From: Verrucomicrobiota bacterium
Lineage (GTDB): Bacteria > Verrucomicrobiota > Verrucomicrobiia > Limisphaerales > JAEYXS01
Length of the DNA: 64,000 nucleotides
Reading direction: 5' to 3'
NCBI GenBank assembly: GCA_023431185.1
Contig: JAEYXS010000065.1
Span: forward strand, 77,386 to 141,385
Shown here: positions 6,079-47,912 of the stretch, piece after piece
Position numbering within the stretch: position 1 is the first letter of the stretch
Layout: each line of letters opens with the position of its first letter
Made by a program: the position numbers and the translations under genes
The notes under the pieces: generated by a model
The model's database searches: none
What the model saw: only the letters and a program-made list of their open reading frames with translations
What the model was told of the DNA's origin: nothing

Positions 6079-6182
6079 TTTGTGGATGGTTTATGGTGGA
6101 TAGTGGATGGGAAGACGGGCAGGCGGGGACGCCTGCGGTACGGCCCGTGAGACGCGTGCGCTACGAATAAGAATTTTTTGAA

Positions 6183-17049: not shown

Positions 17050-18033
17050 ATGCCGCAGAACATTGACAGCGGGGCCAACTCGCGCAGTATTCAGGGCATG
17101 CAATTTCTCCGTATGCGTGCTGCTTTGGTGGCGTTTATGTGTCTCTCGTTCACGGCTGTCGTGCTGGCGGCGGATGATTACAAGTTAGGGCCGGATTCGC
17201 AGGTGAAGGCAGGAGTGCCGCAAGGGAAGGTGGAGAAGTTCACGCTCAAGGACAGCAAGGTGTTCCCCGGTACGACGCGCGATTACTGGACCTACGTGCC
17301 GGCGCAGTATGACGCCGCCAAACCCGCGAGTCTCATGGTTTTCCAGGATGGCGGAGGCATGGTGAGTGCGACCGGTTCCTATCGGGTGCCGGTGGTGTTT
17401 GATAACCTGATCGCCTCGAAGGAAATGCCGGTGACCATCGCACTTTTCATCAATCCAGGGACTTATCCGGCGGCGGAGAAGGGGCAGCAGGCGCGCTCGA
17501 ATCGCAGTTATGAGTATGATTCAGTGACGAACCTGTACGCTCGGTTCCTCATTGAGGAGATGCTGCCCGATTTGGAGAAGAAGTATAACCTCAGCAAGAG
17601 TCCGGCGGATCGGGCGATCTGCGGGAACAGCTCGGGAGCGATCTGTGCTTTCACGGTGGCATGGGAGCGGCCGGATGTGTTCGGCAAGGTGGTGAGCCAC
17701 ATCGGCAGCTTCACGAATATTCGCGGTGGCCATGTCTATCCGTCATTGATTCGCAAGACGAAGCCGGAGAATGCGAAGAACTATTATCTGCCTTCCACGA
17801 TGAATTTGCTCGAGGGCCGCCGGAAAATCCGGGTCTTCCTGCAAGACGGTTCAACGGATCTCGACAATATGCACGGTAACTGGCCGCTGGCGAACCAGGA
17901 CATGGCGGCAGCGCTGAAGTACGCGGGGTGGGATTACAAGTTTGTGTTCGGCGATGGCGGGCACAACGGCAAACACGGCGGCAGCATCTTCCCGGATACG
18001 ATGCGGTGGTTGTGGCGGGATTCGCCGAAGTAG
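17050..18033 (+). CDS. secreted esterase (putative-esterase/CE1-like), paralog of the 14125..15870 N-domain
   Basis: GNSSG nucleophile elbow, [18 protein letters not shown] and [10 protein letters not shown] all align with the upstream paralog. Signal peptide after the internal Met at 17098 (possible true start). Confidence 0.7.
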
Positions 18034-18090
18034 GGTTCAACCACAGAATATACAAAATACACGGAAAGGGCAAAGGGAGAGAGCTGCAGT

Positions 18091-18272
18091 TTAGAGCGGT
18101 TTAAAAAATACTGTAGCCGATTGTACAGGGAGCGAAGCGAGCGGTCTTTTTGGGTGGTGGCGTCGTTTCGGCTCAGTCACAGGGTCTTTGGAACCTGCCC
18201 CTTCGCCAAAGCCTCGTCACCACCCAAAAATCCTCGCTCCAATCGGCCGCATTATTTTTTAAAACGCTCTAA
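18091..18272. repeat. 182-bp imperfect palindromic (MITE-like) element between convergent genes
   Basis: The 33-nt outer arms TTAGAGCGGTTTAAAAAATACTGTAGCCGATTG (18091-18123) and 18240-18272 match in 29 of 33 positions as an inverted repeat. Nested inner arms share TTTTTGGGTGGTG / CACCACCCAAAAA. The right arm overlaps the stop codon of the minus-strand gene. Confidence 0.7.
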
Positions 18273-18805
18273 TCTTCGGTGATGAACTGCCACTGGTTGT
18301 CCAGGCTGATCATGGACCAGAGGTTGAAGGGGATGTGATCAGGCGTGGTCTGAACGAAGCCGGTGTTGCCGCCGGGACGGGGAACTGTCCAGAGGCAGAC
18401 GATACCGTGAGAGGAGAGTTCGGCTTTGGTCACCCGGAAGAATCCAGCTTGCACGGGAGTGGTGATTTTTTCGCCTGATTGGATGCGTTGCGCCAAGGCG
18501 TGAAGCGAAGCATGCGAGAGAGCGTAGGTGAGGCGCATGGGCCAGAGCGTGAAGCAAGAGGAGATAATCAGGGTCAGACTGGACAGGCCCACCAACAGAT
18601 GGGTGAAGCGGCGACTGGTGGAGATCGTTTGACCCAAGAGAGTCAATGCGGCGGTGACTATAAGCAAAGAGGAGCAGAGCAGATAGGCGGGGAGCAGCAC
18701 ATCCCCAAAACCGATAGCGGTCAACACTACAATTGTGCATGCGGAAAGGAGGCAGTAAACGAGGCAGATGTACTCCCAGCGGGGTTTATAGCCGCATGGT
18801 TTCAT
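18269..18805 (-). CDS. hypothetical membrane protein (3 predicted TM helices plus a C-terminal soluble domain)
   Basis: 178-aa ORF with hydrophobic stretches (ICLVYCLLSACTIVVLTAIGF, LLPAYLLCSSLLIVTAALTLL, LLVGLSSLTLIISSCFTL). No recognisable family. Flanked on both sides by repeat DNA. Confidence 0.45.
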   Translation of the reverse strand: MKPCGYKPRWEYICLVYCLLSACTIVVLTAIGFGDVLLPAYLLCSSLLIVTAALTLLGQTISTSRRFTHLLVGLSSLTLIISSCFTLWPMRLTYALSHASLHALAQRIQSGEKITTPVQAGFFRVTKAELSSHGIVCLWTVPRPGGNTGFVQTTPDHIPFNLWSMISLDNQWQFITED

Positions 18806-19016
18806 GAGGGCATTTGTGGTTCATGGCGTGAGAACTTGTGCCATACTATGTGCTGGCTGGAAGGGAATGGCAAGAGAGGGAGTTATCCTAGAAGATGCAC
18901 CACTAAGGGTGCTGAGGGTGAAGATTTCTTAGCCACGGATTAAACACGGAAACACACACGGATTGGGGAAATATGCTTGTGAGTGATTCTGTCTCCATGG
19001 AGCTCACCGGGTTCAC

Positions 19017-19481
19017 CGAAGGCTAGCGGTGACGGGAAAATCGATGGCACGATGGCGGCAGGAAAGAGAAGGCGGATCGAGGCGGTCCGGGCGGGAATGA
19101 TGAATTTTATGTGAACGGATTGGAACGTAGTGGAACACAAGGTTAGCGGTCAGACCGAAAAACAGGCATGGTGAAGGCGTGATAGATGAATTTTGTGTGG
19201 ATGCAGTGGGATGTAGTGAGATGCATGGTTAGCGGTGGCCGGGATAAAGGGACAGGATGAGGGGCATGAAAACGAAATTTTGTGCAGTTGTACGTGTTAT
19301 AGCGAGCGTAGTGATACCGGAGGGCTGGAAGCTGTGATTGGATGGGGGCGTGATGAAAGGAACATTTTGTGACGATACAGCCGATGTAGCCGATGGAAGG
19401 TTAACGGAGGCGAGGATTTGGTGGCAGGATGAGGGCGTATGAGAAACGGAAGTGGATGGAAGATGGTGGATTGTAGATGGG
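19017..19481. repeat. degenerate tandem array, about five units of ~80-120 bp
   Basis: Recurrent landmarks are GGTTAGCGGT / GGCTAGCGGT / GGTTAACGG at 19020, 19141, 19227 and 19399, and GATGAA(TT)TTGTG at 19098, 19185, ~19275 and ~19351. The units are unequal in length and diverged. Confidence 0.6.
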
Positions 19482-38460: not shown

Positions 38461-39066
38461 ATGAGCGTTGTCGCTTCAGAAGTGCACGAGATATTGCCCG
38501 GCGTCTTTCGCTGGGAATGCTTCTCGCGGGAGCACAAGGTGGAACTGACTTCGTATGCCGTGCTGGCAGAAGGGCAACTCTACCTCTTCGACCCGATTGA
38601 GCTGATCGGTGAGGCAAGGCTGCGTTTGCTGTCAAATCACACCGTCGCGGCCATCGTGCTGACGAATGAGAATCATGAGCGGGCGACGGCGGTTTGGCGT
38701 GAGCTTACCCAGGCACCGGTCTGGTTGGGGAATGGAGCCAATGTTGAACTATCTCTTGTGCATCGTTTCGCGAATGAACCAACCCAATGGGGGCCATGGA
38801 CGGTCACGCCGCTGGCAGGTGGTCCGGGCGGTGAAGTGGCTTTGCGCTGGCCGGAACGTTCTTTGGTCGTGTTAGGTGATGCCGCCTTCAATCTGCCGAA
38901 GTACGGTTTCGGACTCTTGCCGGAGAAGTATTGCGAGGATCAGCGCAGGCTGGGGGAATCTTTGCGGCGATTGACGGAGGAGCCGTTTGAGACGGCTTTA
39001 TTGGCGCATGGGGCACCGATCTTGACGGGGGCTTCGGCAAGTATTTCCGAGCTGGTGAAGAAGTAG
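38461..39066 (+). CDS. hypothetical protein, possibly degenerate MBL-fold
   Basis: ATG at 38461, in frame within ORF 38365..39066. Beta-lactamase-fold-like layout, but the HxHxDH motif is not intact (LTNENHERA). Low certainty on function. Confidence 0.4.
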   Translation: MSVVASEVHEILPGVFRWECFSREHKVELTSYAVLAEGQLYLFDPIELIGEARLRLLSNHTVAAIVLTNENHERATAVWRELTQAPVWLGNGANVELSLVHRFANEPTQWGPWTVTPLAGGPGGEVALRWPERSLVVLGDAAFNLPKYGFGLLPEKYCEDQRRLGESLRRLTEEPFETALLAHGAPILTGASASISELVKK

Positions 39067-39084
39067 AGCGAATGGTGAGGCGAG

Positions 39085-39120
39085 TTAACCACAGATGGAC
39101 ACAGATTCACACAGATGGGA
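39085..39120 (+). repeat. short intergenic element: TTAACC anchor plus 3 exact-phase 10-bp direct repeats
   Basis: GTTAACC then CACAGATGGA / CACAGATTCA / CACAGATGGG, starting at 39090, 39100 and 39110. Begins 19 nt after the stop of the upstream gene. Confidence 0.75.
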
Positions 39121-39281
39121 TTGAGGTTCCCCTGAAGTGGTGGATAGAGGAGGGATAGCCATGCGTGTGTGACCCCTTCAAAGCGAAGGGACAATCGCAG
39201 ACTGGCTGCAACGGATAGCGGTGAAAGGGATTTACCTAGGTGGAAACAGGAGGGAAAGGATCATGAGTGGCAACTTTTCAG

Positions 39282-40184
39282 TTAAGAGGGAGCATCCCCA
39301 TGCGAAACCAACTGAGCGGTTTGCAGAAGCGCCTCGACGGTCGGGCCAACCTTCTCCTTGCGATGAGCGATGGCGACGACGGCGGGTGGAGGCGCAGGGT
39401 GTAGCGGCACGAAGACCAAACGGTGCCCAGCGGTCGCAACAAAGACGGAGGCACAAATGCAAATTCCTTTGCCCGACTCAACAGCCGCCCTGAGGCTGGT
39501 CCCGCTGTCGCATTCCTCGACGATGTTAAGTTTTTTCGCCTTCGGACCGATGCTGAGGGAGATAAAATTGTAATAGTCAGGGTATTCCTTCCGAGAATAG
39601 GCAATGACCGGCTGGGTGCAGGCATCCGCCAGCGTCACCCGGCGACGGCGGGCGAAAGGATGATTTGCAGCCACGGCGACACCGACCGGATAGCTCTGTA
39701 ATTCCATGAAGGCGAGACCTCGCCCTGCCTGATGTGAGGGTTGCATCATGAGCGCGGCGTGCAACCGGCCTTCGCGTAGGCCGGCCAGCATCTCGGGAGA
39801 GGAGTGGTCGTGCAGAATGACGCGGACAGCGGGGAAGCTCCGGCGGAAAGATTGCAGCAATTTCGGCAGGATCTCCATCGTGGGCGTCGGCGCATAGCCG
39901 AGGTGCAACTCGCCTTGAGAGCCGGTGGCGACAGCACGAACCTTCTGGACGGCTTGCTCCACGCGCTTAAGCGAAGCCCTCGCCTCATCGAGAAAGACGC
40001 GTCCGGCGTCCGTAAGCCGGATCGACTTCCCGCTCCGGGCGAACAAGGCGACGCCCAGTTCCGCTTCGAGGTCGTGGATCTGCCGCGTCAGCGGCGGCTG
40101 CGAGACGTGCAAGCGCGCGGCTGCCCGCGTGACATTCTGTTCTTCGGCCACGGCGACAAAGTAGCGGAGATGGCGCAATTCCAT
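39282..40184 (-). CDS. LysR-family transcriptional regulator
   Basis: N-terminal HTH MELRHLRYFVAVAEEQNVTRAAARLHVSQPPLTRQI and a LysR substrate-binding C-domain. Confidence 0.9.
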   Translation of the reverse strand: MELRHLRYFVAVAEEQNVTRAAARLHVSQPPLTRQIHDLEAELGVALFARSGKSIRLTDAGRVFLDEARASLKRVEQAVQKVRAVATGSQGELHLGYAPTPTMEILPKLLQSFRRSFPAVRVILHDHSSPEMLAGLREGRLHAALMMQPSHQAGRGLAFMELQSYPVGVAVAANHPFARRRRVTLADACTQPVIAYSRKEYPDYYNFISLSIGPKAKKLNIVEECDSGTSLRAAVESGKGICICASVFVATAGHRLVFVPLHPAPPPAVVAIAHRKEKVGPTVEALLQTAQLVSHGDAPS

Positions 40185-42343: not shown

Positions 42344-43140
42344 CTGGAGAACTGAAAGGCGGTTAGGAGTTGAAAATAGAACCGTCTAAGCATGAAAGGA
42401 AACAGCACTGATATAATTGCCTCACACTGGAAGTGAAAATATTTTCGGGTGCAAGTTTTTGAGAGGGAGGGGATTAGGGATTTTGGTTTTTTGGATGTGG
42501 AAAATTTATTGTGGTGACGGGTTTTTGTGATAGTATTTAGGGGCTGGCAGCTCGCTGCTGGTAAAGGACGGGGTAAAGCCCAGTTTCAGGTTTCTGGTCT
42601 CAAGTTTCAGGTCAGGAACACGAAGAAGAGGGCGGTAATCCCAGGTCACTAAGCATGATGATGCATGGCATTGTTGTGTCCTGCGTTGGCGGGGAGGTGA
42701 CGAGTCCTTATGGGGCCATCATCAGGGATGTGCGAGGTGAGAGGGGCGAAGTGCGACTCTCGCTTCGGAGTCTCTGTTGAAGTTCGGTAGGGCAGTTGCG
42801 GAAAGAGTTTGGGCGGCGGAGCACCTCCGCCCTACCGGACTAGAATAGGATCTGTGGGTGTGTCGGGTGTTTGGGTCGGGGCTCGTAAGCTGGAGGGGGA
42901 ACGGGACGTCGGGCGGCGTAGGATGTTATGACCGACCGGGAAATCTCTAGGTCGAAGTTCGACTGCCGTACCCACTGCGGAACCAGCCGGGCTTTGGACA
43001 AATGCGAGGTGTGAAGTTCGAGGTGCGAAGTATGCACTGCGAGGTTCGGCGTCGAATTGACTTCTTGAATGAGGAGGGTTGGACGGGATGCACGCACAGG
43101 GGTCGGGTGGTTTCATTGCTCTTTGAAATAAGTTCTCTGT

Positions 43141-43175
43141 TTAACCGCAGATGGACGCAGATAAACGCAGATGAG
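43141..43175 (+). repeat. second clear copy of the TTAACC + 3x10-bp element
   Basis: TTAACC then CGCAGATGGA / CGCAGATAAA / CGCAGATGAG, starting at 43146, 43156 and 43166. Confidence 0.75.
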
Positions 43176-43209
43176 GGAGAGGGGGTGTTAAAGCTCCTCC
43201 TCTCCCTGG

Positions 43210-43241
43210 CCCTCTCCTCCATTTATCAATGGAGGAGAGGG
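43210..43241. repeat. perfect 13-bp-stem hairpin
   Basis: CCCTCTCCTCCAT-TTATCA-ATGGAGGAGAGGG, inside the ORF-free region. Confidence 0.6.
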
Positions 43242-43576
43242 GAATGGAACTGTGCGTATGTGAGTCTTAGGTGGTTAATGGAGTGGCTGGCGAGGGTTTG
43301 GTTTCGGGAGGTGTGGACTAGTGGCTAGAGTGCCGCAGGACAGGATGCTATCGCGGAGTGTCACATCAAACAAACTGGATGGTAGGCTGCTTCGAGGGAA
43401 CGTGAAATTGGAGAATGGGATTGGGAGCTTGGTTCTGGGGAGTTCGAAGGTGAAGTTGCTGGTTGGCCGGGGTCACTCCGTGCGTTACAAGCGCGGAGTG
43501 ATACCGGCAGGCCGGGGGAATTGAGTGATGTTGATTGTGCCTTGCACTTTGACTGGTCGCATTTACCTTTGGCGTC

Positions 43577-43849
43577 ATGGCGAATGCGCCCAAGAAAAAA
43601 AGCAAAGCCAAAGCCATGATGCTTGGCGTGGGTCTGGATACGGATGGTCACAAGCGGGTGACCAAAGGGGATAACTTTACCCTCGTGGGCGGCAGCAAGG
43701 ATACCCACGAGGAGATGACCGAGAAGGCCATCAAGATCAATGAGAAGCTCAAAGCCCGTGGCAAGACGTTGGAATCCGTGAGCCATGAGGAGTTTGATGA
43801 CATCGCGCACGCGGTCGGGTTAAGGCGGAACAACAATCAGGCGAACTGA
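43577..43849 (+). CDS. hypothetical small protein (90 aa, Lys-rich N-terminus)
   Basis: ATG start and a clean ORF with coding-like composition (MANAPKKKSKAKAMMLGVGLDTDGHKRVTKGDNFTLVGGSKDTHEEMTEKA...). No family recognised by eye. Confidence 0.5.
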   Translation: MANAPKKKSKAKAMMLGVGLDTDGHKRVTKGDNFTLVGGSKDTHEEMTEKAIKINEKLKARGKTLESVSHEEFDDIAHAVGLRRNNNQAN

Positions 43850-46744: not shown

Positions 46745-47269
46745 ATGCACTGGAGACTGAAACAGACCAATTTGCTCGATGAACCAGCAGACGTCCTCGT
46801 CTGTTCGGCGAACGTCAGTCTTAATCTGTCTGGCGGGGTAGGGGCGGAATTGCTGGGGCGTTATGGTGACCGGATGCAGAAAAGTTTGCATGCGATCTTG
46901 CACCAACGCAGCCCACGGGCGGCGAAGTGCGGTGAAGTGTTCGCTTATTCAGGTAAGGAGATGCCTTATAAAGCGGTGCTTCATGCCATGGCGATCGACG
47001 GCTGGTATCAGAGCAGTCCGCAGATCATCACCGACATCACCCGCAAAGCGCTGAAGATGGCGGCGGAATTTGAGGCAAGGAAAGTGGCTTTCACGGTCTT
47101 GGCCACAGGTTTTGGCAACCTTTCCCTGGCTGATTTTGCGCAAGGTGTGCGACCGATCTTGAATGATGAATTTCCTCCTGTTGAGGAAGTGATTTTTGGC
47201 TTGCTGCTGGATTTTCAAGTGGCGGAACTGGCTAAACATTTTCCAGAATTAGAAACTTGTAGCGTTTAA
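46745..47269 (+). CDS. macro domain (ADP-ribose-binding/processing) protein embedded in the nuo operon
   Basis: 174 aa. N-x6-GGV motif (NVSLNLSGGVG) and G-x-[YF]-G motif (TGFG). Lies 3 nt after the nuoD stop and 7 nt before the nuoI ATG. Confidence 0.7.
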   Translation: MHWRLKQTNLLDEPADVLVCSANVSLNLSGGVGAELLGRYGDRMQKSLHAILHQRSPRAAKCGEVFAYSGKEMPYKAVLHAMAIDGWYQSSPQIITDITRKALKMAAEFEARKVAFTVLATGFGNLSLADFAQGVRPILNDEFPPVEEVIFGLLLDFQVAELAKHFPELETCSV

Positions 47270-47276
47270 AGAACAA

Positions 47277-47912
47277 ATGCTCGGCGAAGGCATACTGAAA
47301 GGCATGGTGGAAACGGCGAGAAATTTCGCCGGGAGCTACGTGTCCAAAGATCGCCTGACGACGGTCGAGTATCCCGAGCAACGCATCGCCCCGAAAGAGA
47401 ATGCGCGGCAGTTCCCGTTTCTGGTGTTCGACGGTAATGATCCACAAGCGGGCTTGCGTTGTGTGGCGTGCCAGATCTGCGAGAAGGAGTGCCCGCCCAA
47501 GTGCATCTACATCGAGAAGAGCAAAGACAAGAAGCCGGACTTCGTGGGCAAGCCGCAGATTTATCCGGCTACGTTTGATATCGATATCTCCGTCTGCATG
47601 AGCTGCCAGATCTGCGTGGAGGTCTGTCCGTTTGATGCCATCAAGATGGACCAGGCGTATGAACTCTCGAATGATGACCGGTTCGGAGGGTTGCTCTTGC
47701 GCAAGATCGATTTGGCGAAACCAAACGACTATTTTCGCAAGCTGCATCCGAAGGATGCAGCCGAGATCGATGCAGCCAGGGTGACGGCCAAGGAACAGGC
47801 CGAAGCCAAGGCGAAGGCAGATGCGGAGGCGAAGGCCAAAGCAGCGGCGGAAGCAAAAGCGAAAGCGGCAGCACCACCAGTGCCACCAGCGGCTCCGCCC
47901 ACGGGCGCATAA
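47277..47912 (+). CDS. nuoI: complex I subunit I (2x[4Fe-4S]) with an Ala/Lys/Glu- and Pro-rich C-terminal tail
   Basis: CVACQICEKECP and CMSCQICVEVCP ferredoxin motifs. Tail sequence AKEQAEAKAKADAEAKAKAAAEAKAKAAAPPVPPAAPPTGA. Confidence 0.9.
   Translation: MLGEGILKGMVETARNFAGSYVSKDRLTTVEYPEQRIAPKENARQFPFLVFDGNDPQAGLRCVACQICEKECPPKCIYIEKSKDKKPDFVGKPQIYPATFDIDISVCMSCQICVEVCPFDAIKMDQAYELSNDDRFGGLLLRKIDLAKPNDYFRKLHPKDAAEIDAARVTAKEQAEAKAKADAEAKAKAAAEAKAKAAAPPVPPAAPPTGA

Follow-up and report, generated by a model that had tools for sequence, protein, structure and literature searches.

We analysed a window of 64,000 nt (the whole stretch, positions 77,386 to 141,385 of contig JAEYXS010000065.1 of a Verrucomicrobiota bacterium, assembly GCA_023431185.1), which lies within a 358-kb metagenome scaffold, and found in it two intergenic copies of a short element, hereafter the arm, that recurs in nearly identical form across bacterial phyla, plasmids and phage-like contigs. 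The arm consists of (T)TAAC, three 10-nt units, each made of a core C-R-C-R-G-A-T and a purine-rich RRA spacer, and an A-rich tail. A non-coding sequence of about 30 nt that is conserved over such a range is rare outside rRNA and tRNA, known examples of conserved non-coding sequences being parS, DnaA boxes and CIRCE, and its near-identity across phyla points either to very conserved host machinery or to an unusually promiscuous spreading mechanism. The reading that we prefer, tentatively and as something a little short of probable, is that the arm is a dispersed gene-boundary module which comes and goes through a trans-acting or recombinational process and persists because it is read by conserved host machinery.

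The original prediction, made from the letters of the window, had described a family of elements in which an AACC-type anchor is followed by three phased repeats of 9-10 nt. Such a family is real. All the strings quoted for it were found in place, and the minus-strand readings of three further copies (19098-19147, 19185-19233 and 19351-19405) are correct as they were written. Two copies on the plus strand are canonical arms. In the first (39085-39119, A-type), GTTAACC at 39084-39090, which includes the TTAACC anchor at 39085-39090, leads into CACAGATGGA, CACAGATTCA and CACAGATGGG over 39090-39119, with CACAGAT cores and the spacers GGA and TCA. In the second (43141-43175, G-type), TTTAACC at 43140-43146, with the TTAACC anchor at 43141-43146, leads into CGCAGATGGA, CGCAGATAAA and CGCAGATGAG over 43146-43175, with CGCAGAT cores and the spacers GGA and AAA. 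A blind scan of the window for three in-phase repeats with a period of 9-11 and at least six columns identical across all three units gave 8 triple-repeat clusters, whereas 200 dinucleotide-preserving shuffles gave 1.8 on average and never more than 6; at seven or more invariant columns there were 2 clusters against 0.12 expected. Enrichment over shuffled sequence had been named beforehand as a test of the family, and within the window it is evident. Five of the 8 clusters are elements of the original prediction, and all five adjoin TTA[AG]C. Since the anchor heptamer alone is not enriched in the window (19 sites versus 22 expected), the association of anchor and repeat goes far beyond chance. 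Tandem Repeats Finder independently gives period 10 at 39090-39118, 43146-43174, 19113-19136 and 19199-19225. The triple-repeat elements of the window are thereby confirmed as real rather than accidental.

To establish how far the arm extends, one genome per GTDB species was searched with the pattern TTAACC-N-CAGAT-NNN-C-N-CAGAT-NNN-C-N-CAGAT, whose 23 specified bases lead one to expect, by our own estimate, about 0.02 chance matches. At least 117 contigs matched, many of them 100 kb to Mb in size. Among the matches listed, the carriers are Cyanobacteria (including the isolates Tolypothrix PCC 7101, Scytonema NIES-4073 and Cylindrospermum NIES-4074, and Microcoleus), Acidobacteria, Verrucomicrobia, Planctomycetes, Chloroflexi, Abditibacteria, Bacteroidota, Treponema and Beta- and Gammaproteobacteria, the taxonomy of metagenome-assembled genomes (MAGs) being as named in the database records; three archaeal MAG matches are on 3-10 kb contigs and may be mis-binned. 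Loci of 4-14 kb, ascertained via the arm itself, were then examined. Positions left free by the pattern are also constrained among the matches listed, the N within the core being A or G and the spacers mostly GAA, GGA, AAA or GCA, and pooling the CAGAT and CGGAT sets gives the core C-R-C-R-G-A-T. Viral contigs with the CAGAT pattern number 18, or 35 if the leading TT is dropped, while the sister core CGGAT occurs on 57 viral contigs, some with 5-7 copies. A scrambled core (GACAT) was found on 9 contigs, mostly as plain tandem repeats with AACC in every unit, which are objects of a different kind. BLAST located unannotated arms on two plasmids: on pTs485 of Thiodictyon syntrophicum, between two formylmethanofuran dehydrogenase (fmd) genes of one operon, and on pANACY.02 of Anabaena cylindrica.

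The arm was not found in INPHARED phages or in 5,426 E. coli genomes. Rfam at its gathering threshold gave tRNA only, both in the window and in 18 carrier loci, and a permissive Rfam search gave nothing bacterial, only sub-threshold generic miRNA-precursor hairpins. In open-access full text, searched by exact strings and keywords, the arm sequence appeared only in unrelated primers. The claim that no annotated feature explains these elements thus extends to curated families, none of which matches. We could not find a curated RNA family, a plasmid annotation or a paper with the sequence, and the arm is apparently undescribed, with a real though lesser chance that it has been described before under another name.

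The anatomy of the arm is clearest in its inverted partners, which were not constrained by the search and which give ttT-AAC-CRCAGAT-RRA-CRCAGAT-RRA-CRCAGAT, with core positions 90-98% conserved. A single arm is made of three direct repeats and has no self-complementarity; a hairpin arises only from two inverted arms. When a partner was required to lie within 200 nt and to have no more than 9 of 30 mismatches, 51 of the 127 arms among the matches listed had one on the inner side, so that AACC is outermost, one had it on the outer side and 75 had none. Such pairs, absent from the original prediction, thus involve about 40% of arms and form hairpins of 30-40 bp around a gap of 1-149 nt, which is not conserved between genomes and in which small GC hairpins are frequent; one gap contains a nested hairpin of another core. 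The other arms, about 60%, are solo, and a relic antisense heptamer is only about 7% commoner downstream of them than upstream, which indicates that most solo arms are genuinely solo. A third arrangement is the tandem array, in which arms occur alongside same-layout modules of other cores; the 19-kb array of the window belongs here. The number of units is three in 335 arms, and four or five in only 13; longer arms would have matched too. Beyond the AACC end the near flank is T-rich and the farther flank A-rich on the sense strand; outward on the other strand, GGTT is followed by an A-rich and then a mildly T-rich stretch.

A profile built from this widespread family (nhmmer) recognises the arm at 43141 with an E-value of 3e-12 and that at 39085 with 1e-10, and these are its only clear matches in the window. 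Both are solo by the relic-heptamer test, with one single-mismatch relic heptamer each. For the 39085 arm this relic, at 39161, is all that is seen downstream, and the region 39070-39200 folds no better than shuffled sequence (z -0.27). The arm begins 19 nt past the stop codon (39064-39066) of a metallo-beta-lactamase-fold gene, and 162 nt separate it from the stop of a LysR gene that runs convergently (39282-40184, minus strand). The original prediction had suggested comparing orthologous loci; one close relative was found (L144, 92% protein identity), and there the arm is present with a single changed base, in a spacer. The 43141 arm sits in non-coding DNA, a stretch of 1.2 kb that precedes a small ORF (open reading frame; 43577-43849) and the nuo operon. 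Directly inside it are two GC-rich hairpins on the plus strand (43174-43248, composed of 43174-43185/43196-43207 and 43203-43223/43228-43248), so that the locus resembles the layout of arm, inner GC hairpin or hairpins, and arm seen elsewhere, for example in L125 and L208. The fold of 43130-43295 has a dG of -83.7 kcal/mol (z -6.5), with the arm paired around the two hairpins. Its partner in this predicted minimum-energy structure is 43249-43278 on the minus strand, ending in GGTTAA (43273-43278), possibly a decayed partner arm, although it gives no match to the arm profile and holds only one heptamer, with one mismatch. The non-coding stretch itself (42344-43576) is unusually long, precedes nuoA and the small ORF, which encodes a conserved protein of 90 aa with no Pfam hit, and is rich in inverted repeats and in short tandem repeats (42586-42613, 42730-42756 and 43005-43031). 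The contig L002 of a related assembly stops 240 nt upstream of the small ORF, the repeats probably having broken the assembly.

How strongly the sequence is held can be judged from 26 pairs of loci with homologous flanks, in which divergence is 2.5% for the core, 5.8% for the pair of R positions, 14% for the two variable bases of the spacer and 19% for the outer flank (60 nt), a conservation inflated by ascertainment because both members of a pair had to be recognisable. In L095/L109 the arms are identical and the flanks 32% diverged, and pairs with 30-40% flank divergence and no more than one arm change are hard to obtain neutrally. The original prediction held that the layout is conserved and the repeat sequence variable. 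It was right in that same-layout modules with other cores do co-occur (the 19-kb array described below and modules X and Y of L198/L234), whereas the dominant core C-R-C-R-G-A-T is kept across phyla and diverges about seven times more slowly than its flanks. The constraint is not simply one on stem formation. In 88 hairpins the core positions are about 95% Watson-Crick paired between the arms and the two variable spacer bases only about 50%, and each arm retains purine-purine spacers on the strand that carries its AACC, at the cost of pairing, which argues for a constraint that acts on each arm separately and is oriented. The R positions are also uniform: within an arm AAA occurs 155 times and GGG 78 times versus 50 mixed, and between arms AA 149 and GG 67 times versus 37 discordant. 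By our own arithmetic the discordance is 15% between arms and 12% between neighbouring units of an arm, and since the former is no lower than the latter, common descent or homogenisation, rather than selection for base pairs, probably accounts for the agreement. Unit number differs between the related phages L220 and L223 (3 versus 4), and likewise between L132 and L134, and identical neighbouring spacers are slightly in excess (60 versus 45 expected). Slippage does occur, but it is no explanation for so sharp a preference for three units.

The placement of the arms bears out the claim that they are intergenic and lie preferentially beside gene ends. By crude longest-ORF gene calls, 60, 25 and 14% of elements are in tandem, convergent and divergent intergenic regions, compared with 57, 19 and 24% by number and 49, 19 and 32% by length for the unoccupied regions of the same loci. 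The 14% in divergent regions, set against 24-32%, indicates that elements avoid promoter-only regions roughly two-fold but are not excluded from them. With respect to stop codons, solo arms show polarity: in 56 cases the stop of a co-directional gene is no more than 30 nt from the AACC side, and in 19 no more than 30 nt from the inner side. Typically the AACC end is 0-15 nt past this stop or overlaps it, and in 16 cases the TAA of T-AACC is the stop codon itself. Phage contig L236 has 7 co-oriented arms, intergenic or inter-ORF, several of them directly between a stop and the next Shine-Dalgarno sequence and ATG. Solo arms also lie sense-wise on the G-rich strand in a ratio of 101:36 (60:9 in viral contigs and 41:27 in genomes). 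Replication-strand orientation of the kind seen with single-stranded DNA targeting by IS200/IS605 elements was considered as the cause and rejected, because the bias is mainly viral and tracks the coding strand instead.

Neighbour-gene clustering within 1.2-1.5 kb of the arms, at about 230 loci, revealed no transposase, RAYT (REP-associated tyrosine transposase) or integrase. Recurrent neighbour families were limited to phage structural genes and, in 4-5 loci and not significantly so, a small GxxExxY-like gene. The latter (L032, L064, L087, L088 and L123) we take by eye, with no family search, to be GxxExxY or PD-(D/E)XK-like; in L064 it lies between arms, and the cases are too few for an association. 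An autonomous element between facing arms 0.3-5 kb apart was also looked for; within the 4-14-kb loci such arms enclose only ordinary genes (DnaK, a deacetylase, phage structural genes).

That arms nevertheless come and go can be seen in the related phage contigs L198 and L234, which are 80-84% identical. An extra canonical arm is present between conserved genes, an arm-containing segment of about 65-90 nt is tandemly duplicated, and two adjacent same-layout modules, TTTTTT-[CTCTGTG+2]x3-GCTAAA and [ATCCGTG+3]x3-GTTAA, are swapped in order; this is the same picture as in the 19-kb array of the window. Such differences in presence, duplication, unit number and order among close relatives are consistent with a mobile or recombinational process, as the original prediction had proposed among other possibilities.

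Two sets of loci show arms combined with other repeats. On four separate contigs of an Abditibacteriia MAG (L031, L042, L043 and L101) a conserved segment of about 25 nt, CTTCGTCGCAAGTTTTCGCGAT..., precedes the arm, so that genome-specific composite repeats incorporate the universal arm. In seven cyanobacterial loci (L039, L044, L045, L069, L071, L094 and L118) solo arms are in the loop of another conserved palindrome, TAGAC[CT]TCTTGCA...TGCAAGAGGTCTA, i.e. two different repeat families are nested.

What calls for explanation above all is near-identity across phyla together with the oriented constraint on eight of every ten bases of an arm and the fixed number of three units. On the reading that we prefer, arms would appear and disappear, duplicate and be reshuffled through a process that is trans-acting or recombinational, and purifying selection would keep them, because the arm sequence, in its own orientation, would be recognised by conserved host machinery acting on transcription or on transcripts at gene ends. 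The data show the anatomy and distribution of the arm, its three-unit length, the constraint on its sequence, its polarity to stop codons, its turnover among relatives and, at the loci examined, the lack of a cis-encoded enzyme; a functional cause of the constraint, as opposed to gene conversion, the nature of the recognising factor and the mode of spread are inferred. Several points weigh against this. No recognising factor or mobilising enzyme was identified at the loci examined, and no clean empty-versus-filled site or target-site duplication was seen there. Gene conversion among copies could mimic selection, the pairs that display conservation are those in which both arms were recognisable, and the context figures depend on crude gene calls. 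REP (repetitive extragenic palindromic) units are palindromes with a GTAG or CGTC tag, unlike arms. Families of REP elements and of MITEs (miniature inverted-repeat transposable elements) are normally genus-specific, with MITE clusters at about 97% (PMC11602168, for MITEs), and the cross-phylum identity of the arm is unexplained unless universal machinery reads it. Finally, four or more T within 14 nt beyond GGTT are found in only 18% of hairpin arms, where the flank is AA followed by 35-48% T; this paucity of U-tracts, together with the roughly 14% of elements in divergent regions, implies that arms are not ordinary terminators. A canonical intrinsic terminator was accordingly rejected, the majority of arms being solo as well.

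The consequences differ with the mechanism. If RNA polymerase reads the arm, it would be a natural portable gene-boundary insulator and a handle on termination and antisense control in phyla where little is understood of either, including the cyanobacteria, in which we know of no Rho. Were it instead a mobile element, the genus-specificity of MITE and REP families would no longer hold as a rule. In practice arms break metagenome assemblies, and they could mark phage-host links.

One may also consider a miniature transposable element, in which the arms are terminal inverted repeats of three transposase-binding sites each, mobilised in trans, solo arms are half-elements and any function is incidental. 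The inverted pairs with a fixed outer end, the high copy number on chromosomes, plasmids and phage-like contigs, the nesting within other hairpins (L110 and the cyanobacterial loci) and the presence/absence and reshuffling among relatives are all what one would expect of such an element. The oriented constraint on each arm and the A/G degeneracy of its R positions are typical of protein reading double-stranded DNA, and TTAA is found at both ends in about 35% of pairs. Yet the neighbour clustering revealed no transposase near or between arms, the internal sequence is not conserved, with gaps down to 1-14 nt, and there is no target-site duplication; AACC is better kept than the TT before it, so TTAA is not a clean duplicated target. 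As a class MITEs are near genus-specific (PMC11602168), whereas the arm is identical across phyla, and cores stay conserved between species with flank differences of 30-40%. We regard this explanation as unlikely, though deserving of serious attention.

Distinctly unlikely, but the most specific candidate for the machinery, is RNA polymerase and with it a phased pause array that punctuates gene boundaries, in which the antisense arm would act as a series of elemental pause sites that follow the consensus and are in phase. That consensus reads g-11 G-10 t-3 g-2 Y-1 G+1, a pause hairpin stimulates pausing when its stem reaches -13 to -11, and the consensus is reported to act on diverse RNA polymerases (PMC11077087), from bacteria to mammals (PMC6336406). 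Read towards AACC, the antisense unit A-T-C-Y-G-Y-G-T-Y-Y would present g-11 G-10 t-3 g-2 Y-1 G+1, and with a period of 10 each unit's G+1 doubles as G-10 for the unit after it, so that G-10, t-3, g-2, Y-1 and G+1 are all matched by the antisense units. In inverted pairs the proximal arm would pair with the transcribed units and bring the edge of the stem to about -11, and sense-wise solo arms past genes would stall polymerase that comes in from downstream, antisense to the gene. A consensus active on diverse polymerases would explain the cross-phylum identity. TGYG-N6-TGYG-N6-TGYG occurs in the window only at the two arms (2 versus 0.21 expected), the variable core positions R2 and R4 correspond exactly to Y-1 and t-3, and GYG at the antisense 3' end is common to most cores (CRCAGAT, CRCGGAT, CACGAAT, CGCAAAG and CRCAGAG). 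Solo arms are also sense-oriented to adjacent genes, and the 39085 arm faces the convergent LysR gene. On the other hand, any 10-periodic repeat with YG satisfies G-10/Y-1/G+1, and a conserved heptamer holds TGYG by chance in about 6% of cases by our own estimate. The invariant A-T-C, the AACC anchor, the three units and the uniform R states are not accounted for by pausing. Period-9 relatives give g-11, not G-10, and in the arm itself position -11 is Y rather than G.

Somewhat less likely again is a broader version, in which the machinery of transcription and translation would directly read the arm as a punctuation mark, universal and orientation-specific. In the outward-in reading, the TAA of TTAACC and the T+RR spacers, at a period of 10 nt (1 modulo 3), would put stops in three frames; read inward-out, the arm would be three in-phase elemental pause sites, to which inverted pairs would add a ratcheting pause hairpin at -11. 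If this were true, the arm would be a sequence-conserved, U-tract-independent and bidirectional barrier at gene ends and against antisense transcription, across phyla and phages. T+RR spacers do yield stops in 52-61% of cases. Selection for stop codons was, however, rejected as the main driver of the purine spacers: period-9 relatives cannot shift frame, and GG spacers, which give TGG, are not avoided (observed/expected 25/21.6 and 16/10.4 by our own arithmetic), the latter weakening the stop-codon part of this version.

Precedents exist for three direct repeats as protein-binding sites, namely the arm sites P'1-P'3 of lambda Int and the MraZ boxes (three direct repeats with a 10-bp period). 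The arms might thus be iteron-like sites for a conserved nucleoid, partition or regulatory DNA-binding protein, three on one face of the helix, and the exact 10-bp phase, the exactly three units, the oriented constraint and the purine degeneracy would all suit this. We nevertheless hold it to be a poor prospect. Eight of ten positions per turn are invariant, which is unusual for reading of double-stranded DNA from one face, the spacing of paired arms varies from 1 to 149 nt, a locus may carry multiple copies and no regulon-like association with genes is seen, different cores occur side by side in a single intergenic region, and no candidate protein emerged from the loci examined. It is scarcely credible that the arms are ordinary short tandem repeats (slippage minisatellites) with TTAACC beside them by accident, or pieces of one ordinary repeat with no meaningful triplication, since despite the unit-number changes and the slight excess of identical spacers noted above three-unit arms predominate by 335 to 13, spacers usually differ where cores are identical, the same 30-mer recurs across phyla, the repeats are associated with the anchor, and the scrambled core mostly gives plain tandem repeats of a different kind; a single ordinary repeat lacking internal triplication, which the original prediction had named as its refutation, is likewise contradicted by the window scan, the cross-phylum recurrence, the profile of the partner arms and the unit counts.

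Some narrower resemblances were also considered. Binding sites for CsrA/RsmA, whose consensus is WCANGGANGW, were rejected: CACGGAUGA units fit the consensus, but the commoner CAGAT core lacks GGA, and to our knowledge some of the carrier phyla lack CsrA. The DnaA box, CIRCE, hix and BoxA bear only partial resemblances to the arm. The base of the G-type stem, UAACCGCAGA / UCUGCGGUUA (e.g. 43141-43150), resembles helix 45 of 16S rRNA, UAACCGUAGG / CCUGCGGUUG, at 8 of 10 positions per strand; this is probably coincidental, since the commoner A-type departs from helix 45.

The remaining elements of the window are related to the canonical arm to differing degrees. Between divergent genes at 19 kb there is an array of five tandem units of about 86 nt (18985-19445, minus strand), whose flanks share 60-80% identity. 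Each unit reads ATGAATTTTGTG, three phased 9-10-nt repeats, GGYTARCGG, about 25 nt and GGATGAGGG; the three minus-strand copies listed above are the repeat-plus-anchor parts of units 1, 2 and 4. The cores differ, with GAAC in unit 1, GATG/GATA in units 2 and 4, and one unit degenerate. None of the units matches the canonical arm profile in nhmmer, and the flank pattern had 34 matches in viral contigs, no more than a rough chance expectation, none with triple repeats. The array shares the layout of the canonical arm but belongs to a different sequence family, contrary to the original prediction, which had grouped its copies with the forward ones.

Of the looser relatives that had been proposed after gene ends, two look like degenerate arms on the plus strand. 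One (18929-18970) belongs to a CACGGAT sub-family, with TTAGCC followed by ACGGAT-TAAAC-ACGGAA-ACACAC-ACGGAT and a weak, partial nhmmer match at 18925-18943 (E 1.8); the CACGGAT core is abundant elsewhere. The other (18036-18075) starts 3 nt past the stop of an esterase gene (17050-18033) and has a period of 9, TTCAACC being followed by ACAGAATAT, ACAAAATAC and ACGGAAAGG; its nhmmer match, at 18035-18047, is likewise weak and partial (E 2.2), and period-9 relatives with CACGAAA and CACGAAT cores are present in other loci. The third, 6079-6114, is not a member: it repeats GTGGAT with a period of 7/14, lacks the anchor and precedes a GC hairpin. Directly after the degenerate arm at 18036, between the esterase gene on the plus strand and a convergent ORF (18269-18805, minus strand), is a long nested palindrome (18088-18275). 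Its outer arms (18088-18123 / 18240-18275) are 36 nt long and 86% complementary and its inner arms (18147-18186 / 18191-18230) 40 nt and 73%.

Elsewhere in the window, a PSCyt1/PSCyt2/PSD1 and DUF1501 gene pair is present, which places the organism in the PVC superphylum, and a Macro-domain gene (PF01661, about 46745-47269) is found within the nuo operon, between the genes for the 49-kDa subunit and a ferredoxin-type subunit. In the 3' part of the 4Fe-4S subunit ORF (47277-47912), positions 47797-47866 hold an imperfect 24-nt tandem repeat, AGGCGGAAGCAAAGGCGAAAGCAG, in about 2.9 copies, which presumably encodes a Lys/Ala-rich extension of low complexity. Almost all 2-kb bins of the window have a positive GC skew (up to +0.30) and long ORFs are mostly on the plus strand; all of the window probably belongs to a single replichore arm whose genes are co-oriented.

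Compared with known systems, the arm shares with iterons and with arm-type recombinase sites (lambda Int, MraZ boxes) its three direct repeats at about one helical turn, but those are single-locus sites with a known protein, whereas arms are dispersed at gene boundaries with no recurrent neighbour gene. Integron attC sites are also imperfect inverted repeats at ORF 3' ends, with outer ...AAC / GTT... boxes and a variable centre; their boxes run R''(RYYYAAC)-L''...L'-R'(GTTRRRY), with extrahelical bases, beside an integrase or in cassette arrays. In arms, however, the R''/L''-L'/R' order, an integrase and cassette arrays are absent from the loci examined and only the outer AAC/GTT triplets coincide; arms are triple direct repeats, conserved in sequence and not only in structure. 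The likeness to terminators and pause sites lies in a long hairpin just past stop codons, in the A-rich and T-rich flanks and in an antisense arm that matches the pause consensus in phase. Most arms nevertheless have no U-tract, about 60% are solo and have no hairpin, some are inside operons (the fmd genes of Thiodictyon, phage L236), and the sequence of the arm stem is conserved, which that of terminator stems is not. MITEs such as Correia and Nezha elements have inverted terminal arms and a short non-coding centre, are intergenic and multi-copy, occur in viral contigs and sometimes supply stop codons. Arms differ from them in having no target-site duplication or conserved centre and, at the loci examined, no cognate insertion sequence, in being often solo, in their three phased repeats and in their cross-phylum identity.

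The closest parallel is with REP sequences and their compounds (bacterial interspersed mosaic elements, BIMEs, and hairpin-forming REP doublets, REPINs), which are likewise short, high-copy, extragenic, non-autonomous and found preferentially at gene 3' ends, with a conserved terminal tag beside a variable body. REP sequences are organised as extragenic singletons, head-to-head hairpin-forming dimers and tandem clusters, and their tags are defined as GTAG or CGTC (PMC3733652). A REP unit is a stem-loop, an imperfect palindrome of 20-40 nt, whereas the arm is three direct decamers with no internal palindrome; its tag is (T)TAACC, at the roughly 230 loci no Y1/RAYT gene turned up in the 1.2-1.5 kb around an arm, and its body is conserved across phyla where that of REP is species-specific. 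With a unit that is no palindrome, a tag other than GTAG or CGTC and no RAYT at those loci, the arm is not a REP by definition; nor is it a typical MITE or an ordinary terminator. As a class, however, REP/BIME-like elements, short, non-autonomous and high-copy, occurring as singletons, head-to-head dimers and clusters, appear to fit the facts best.

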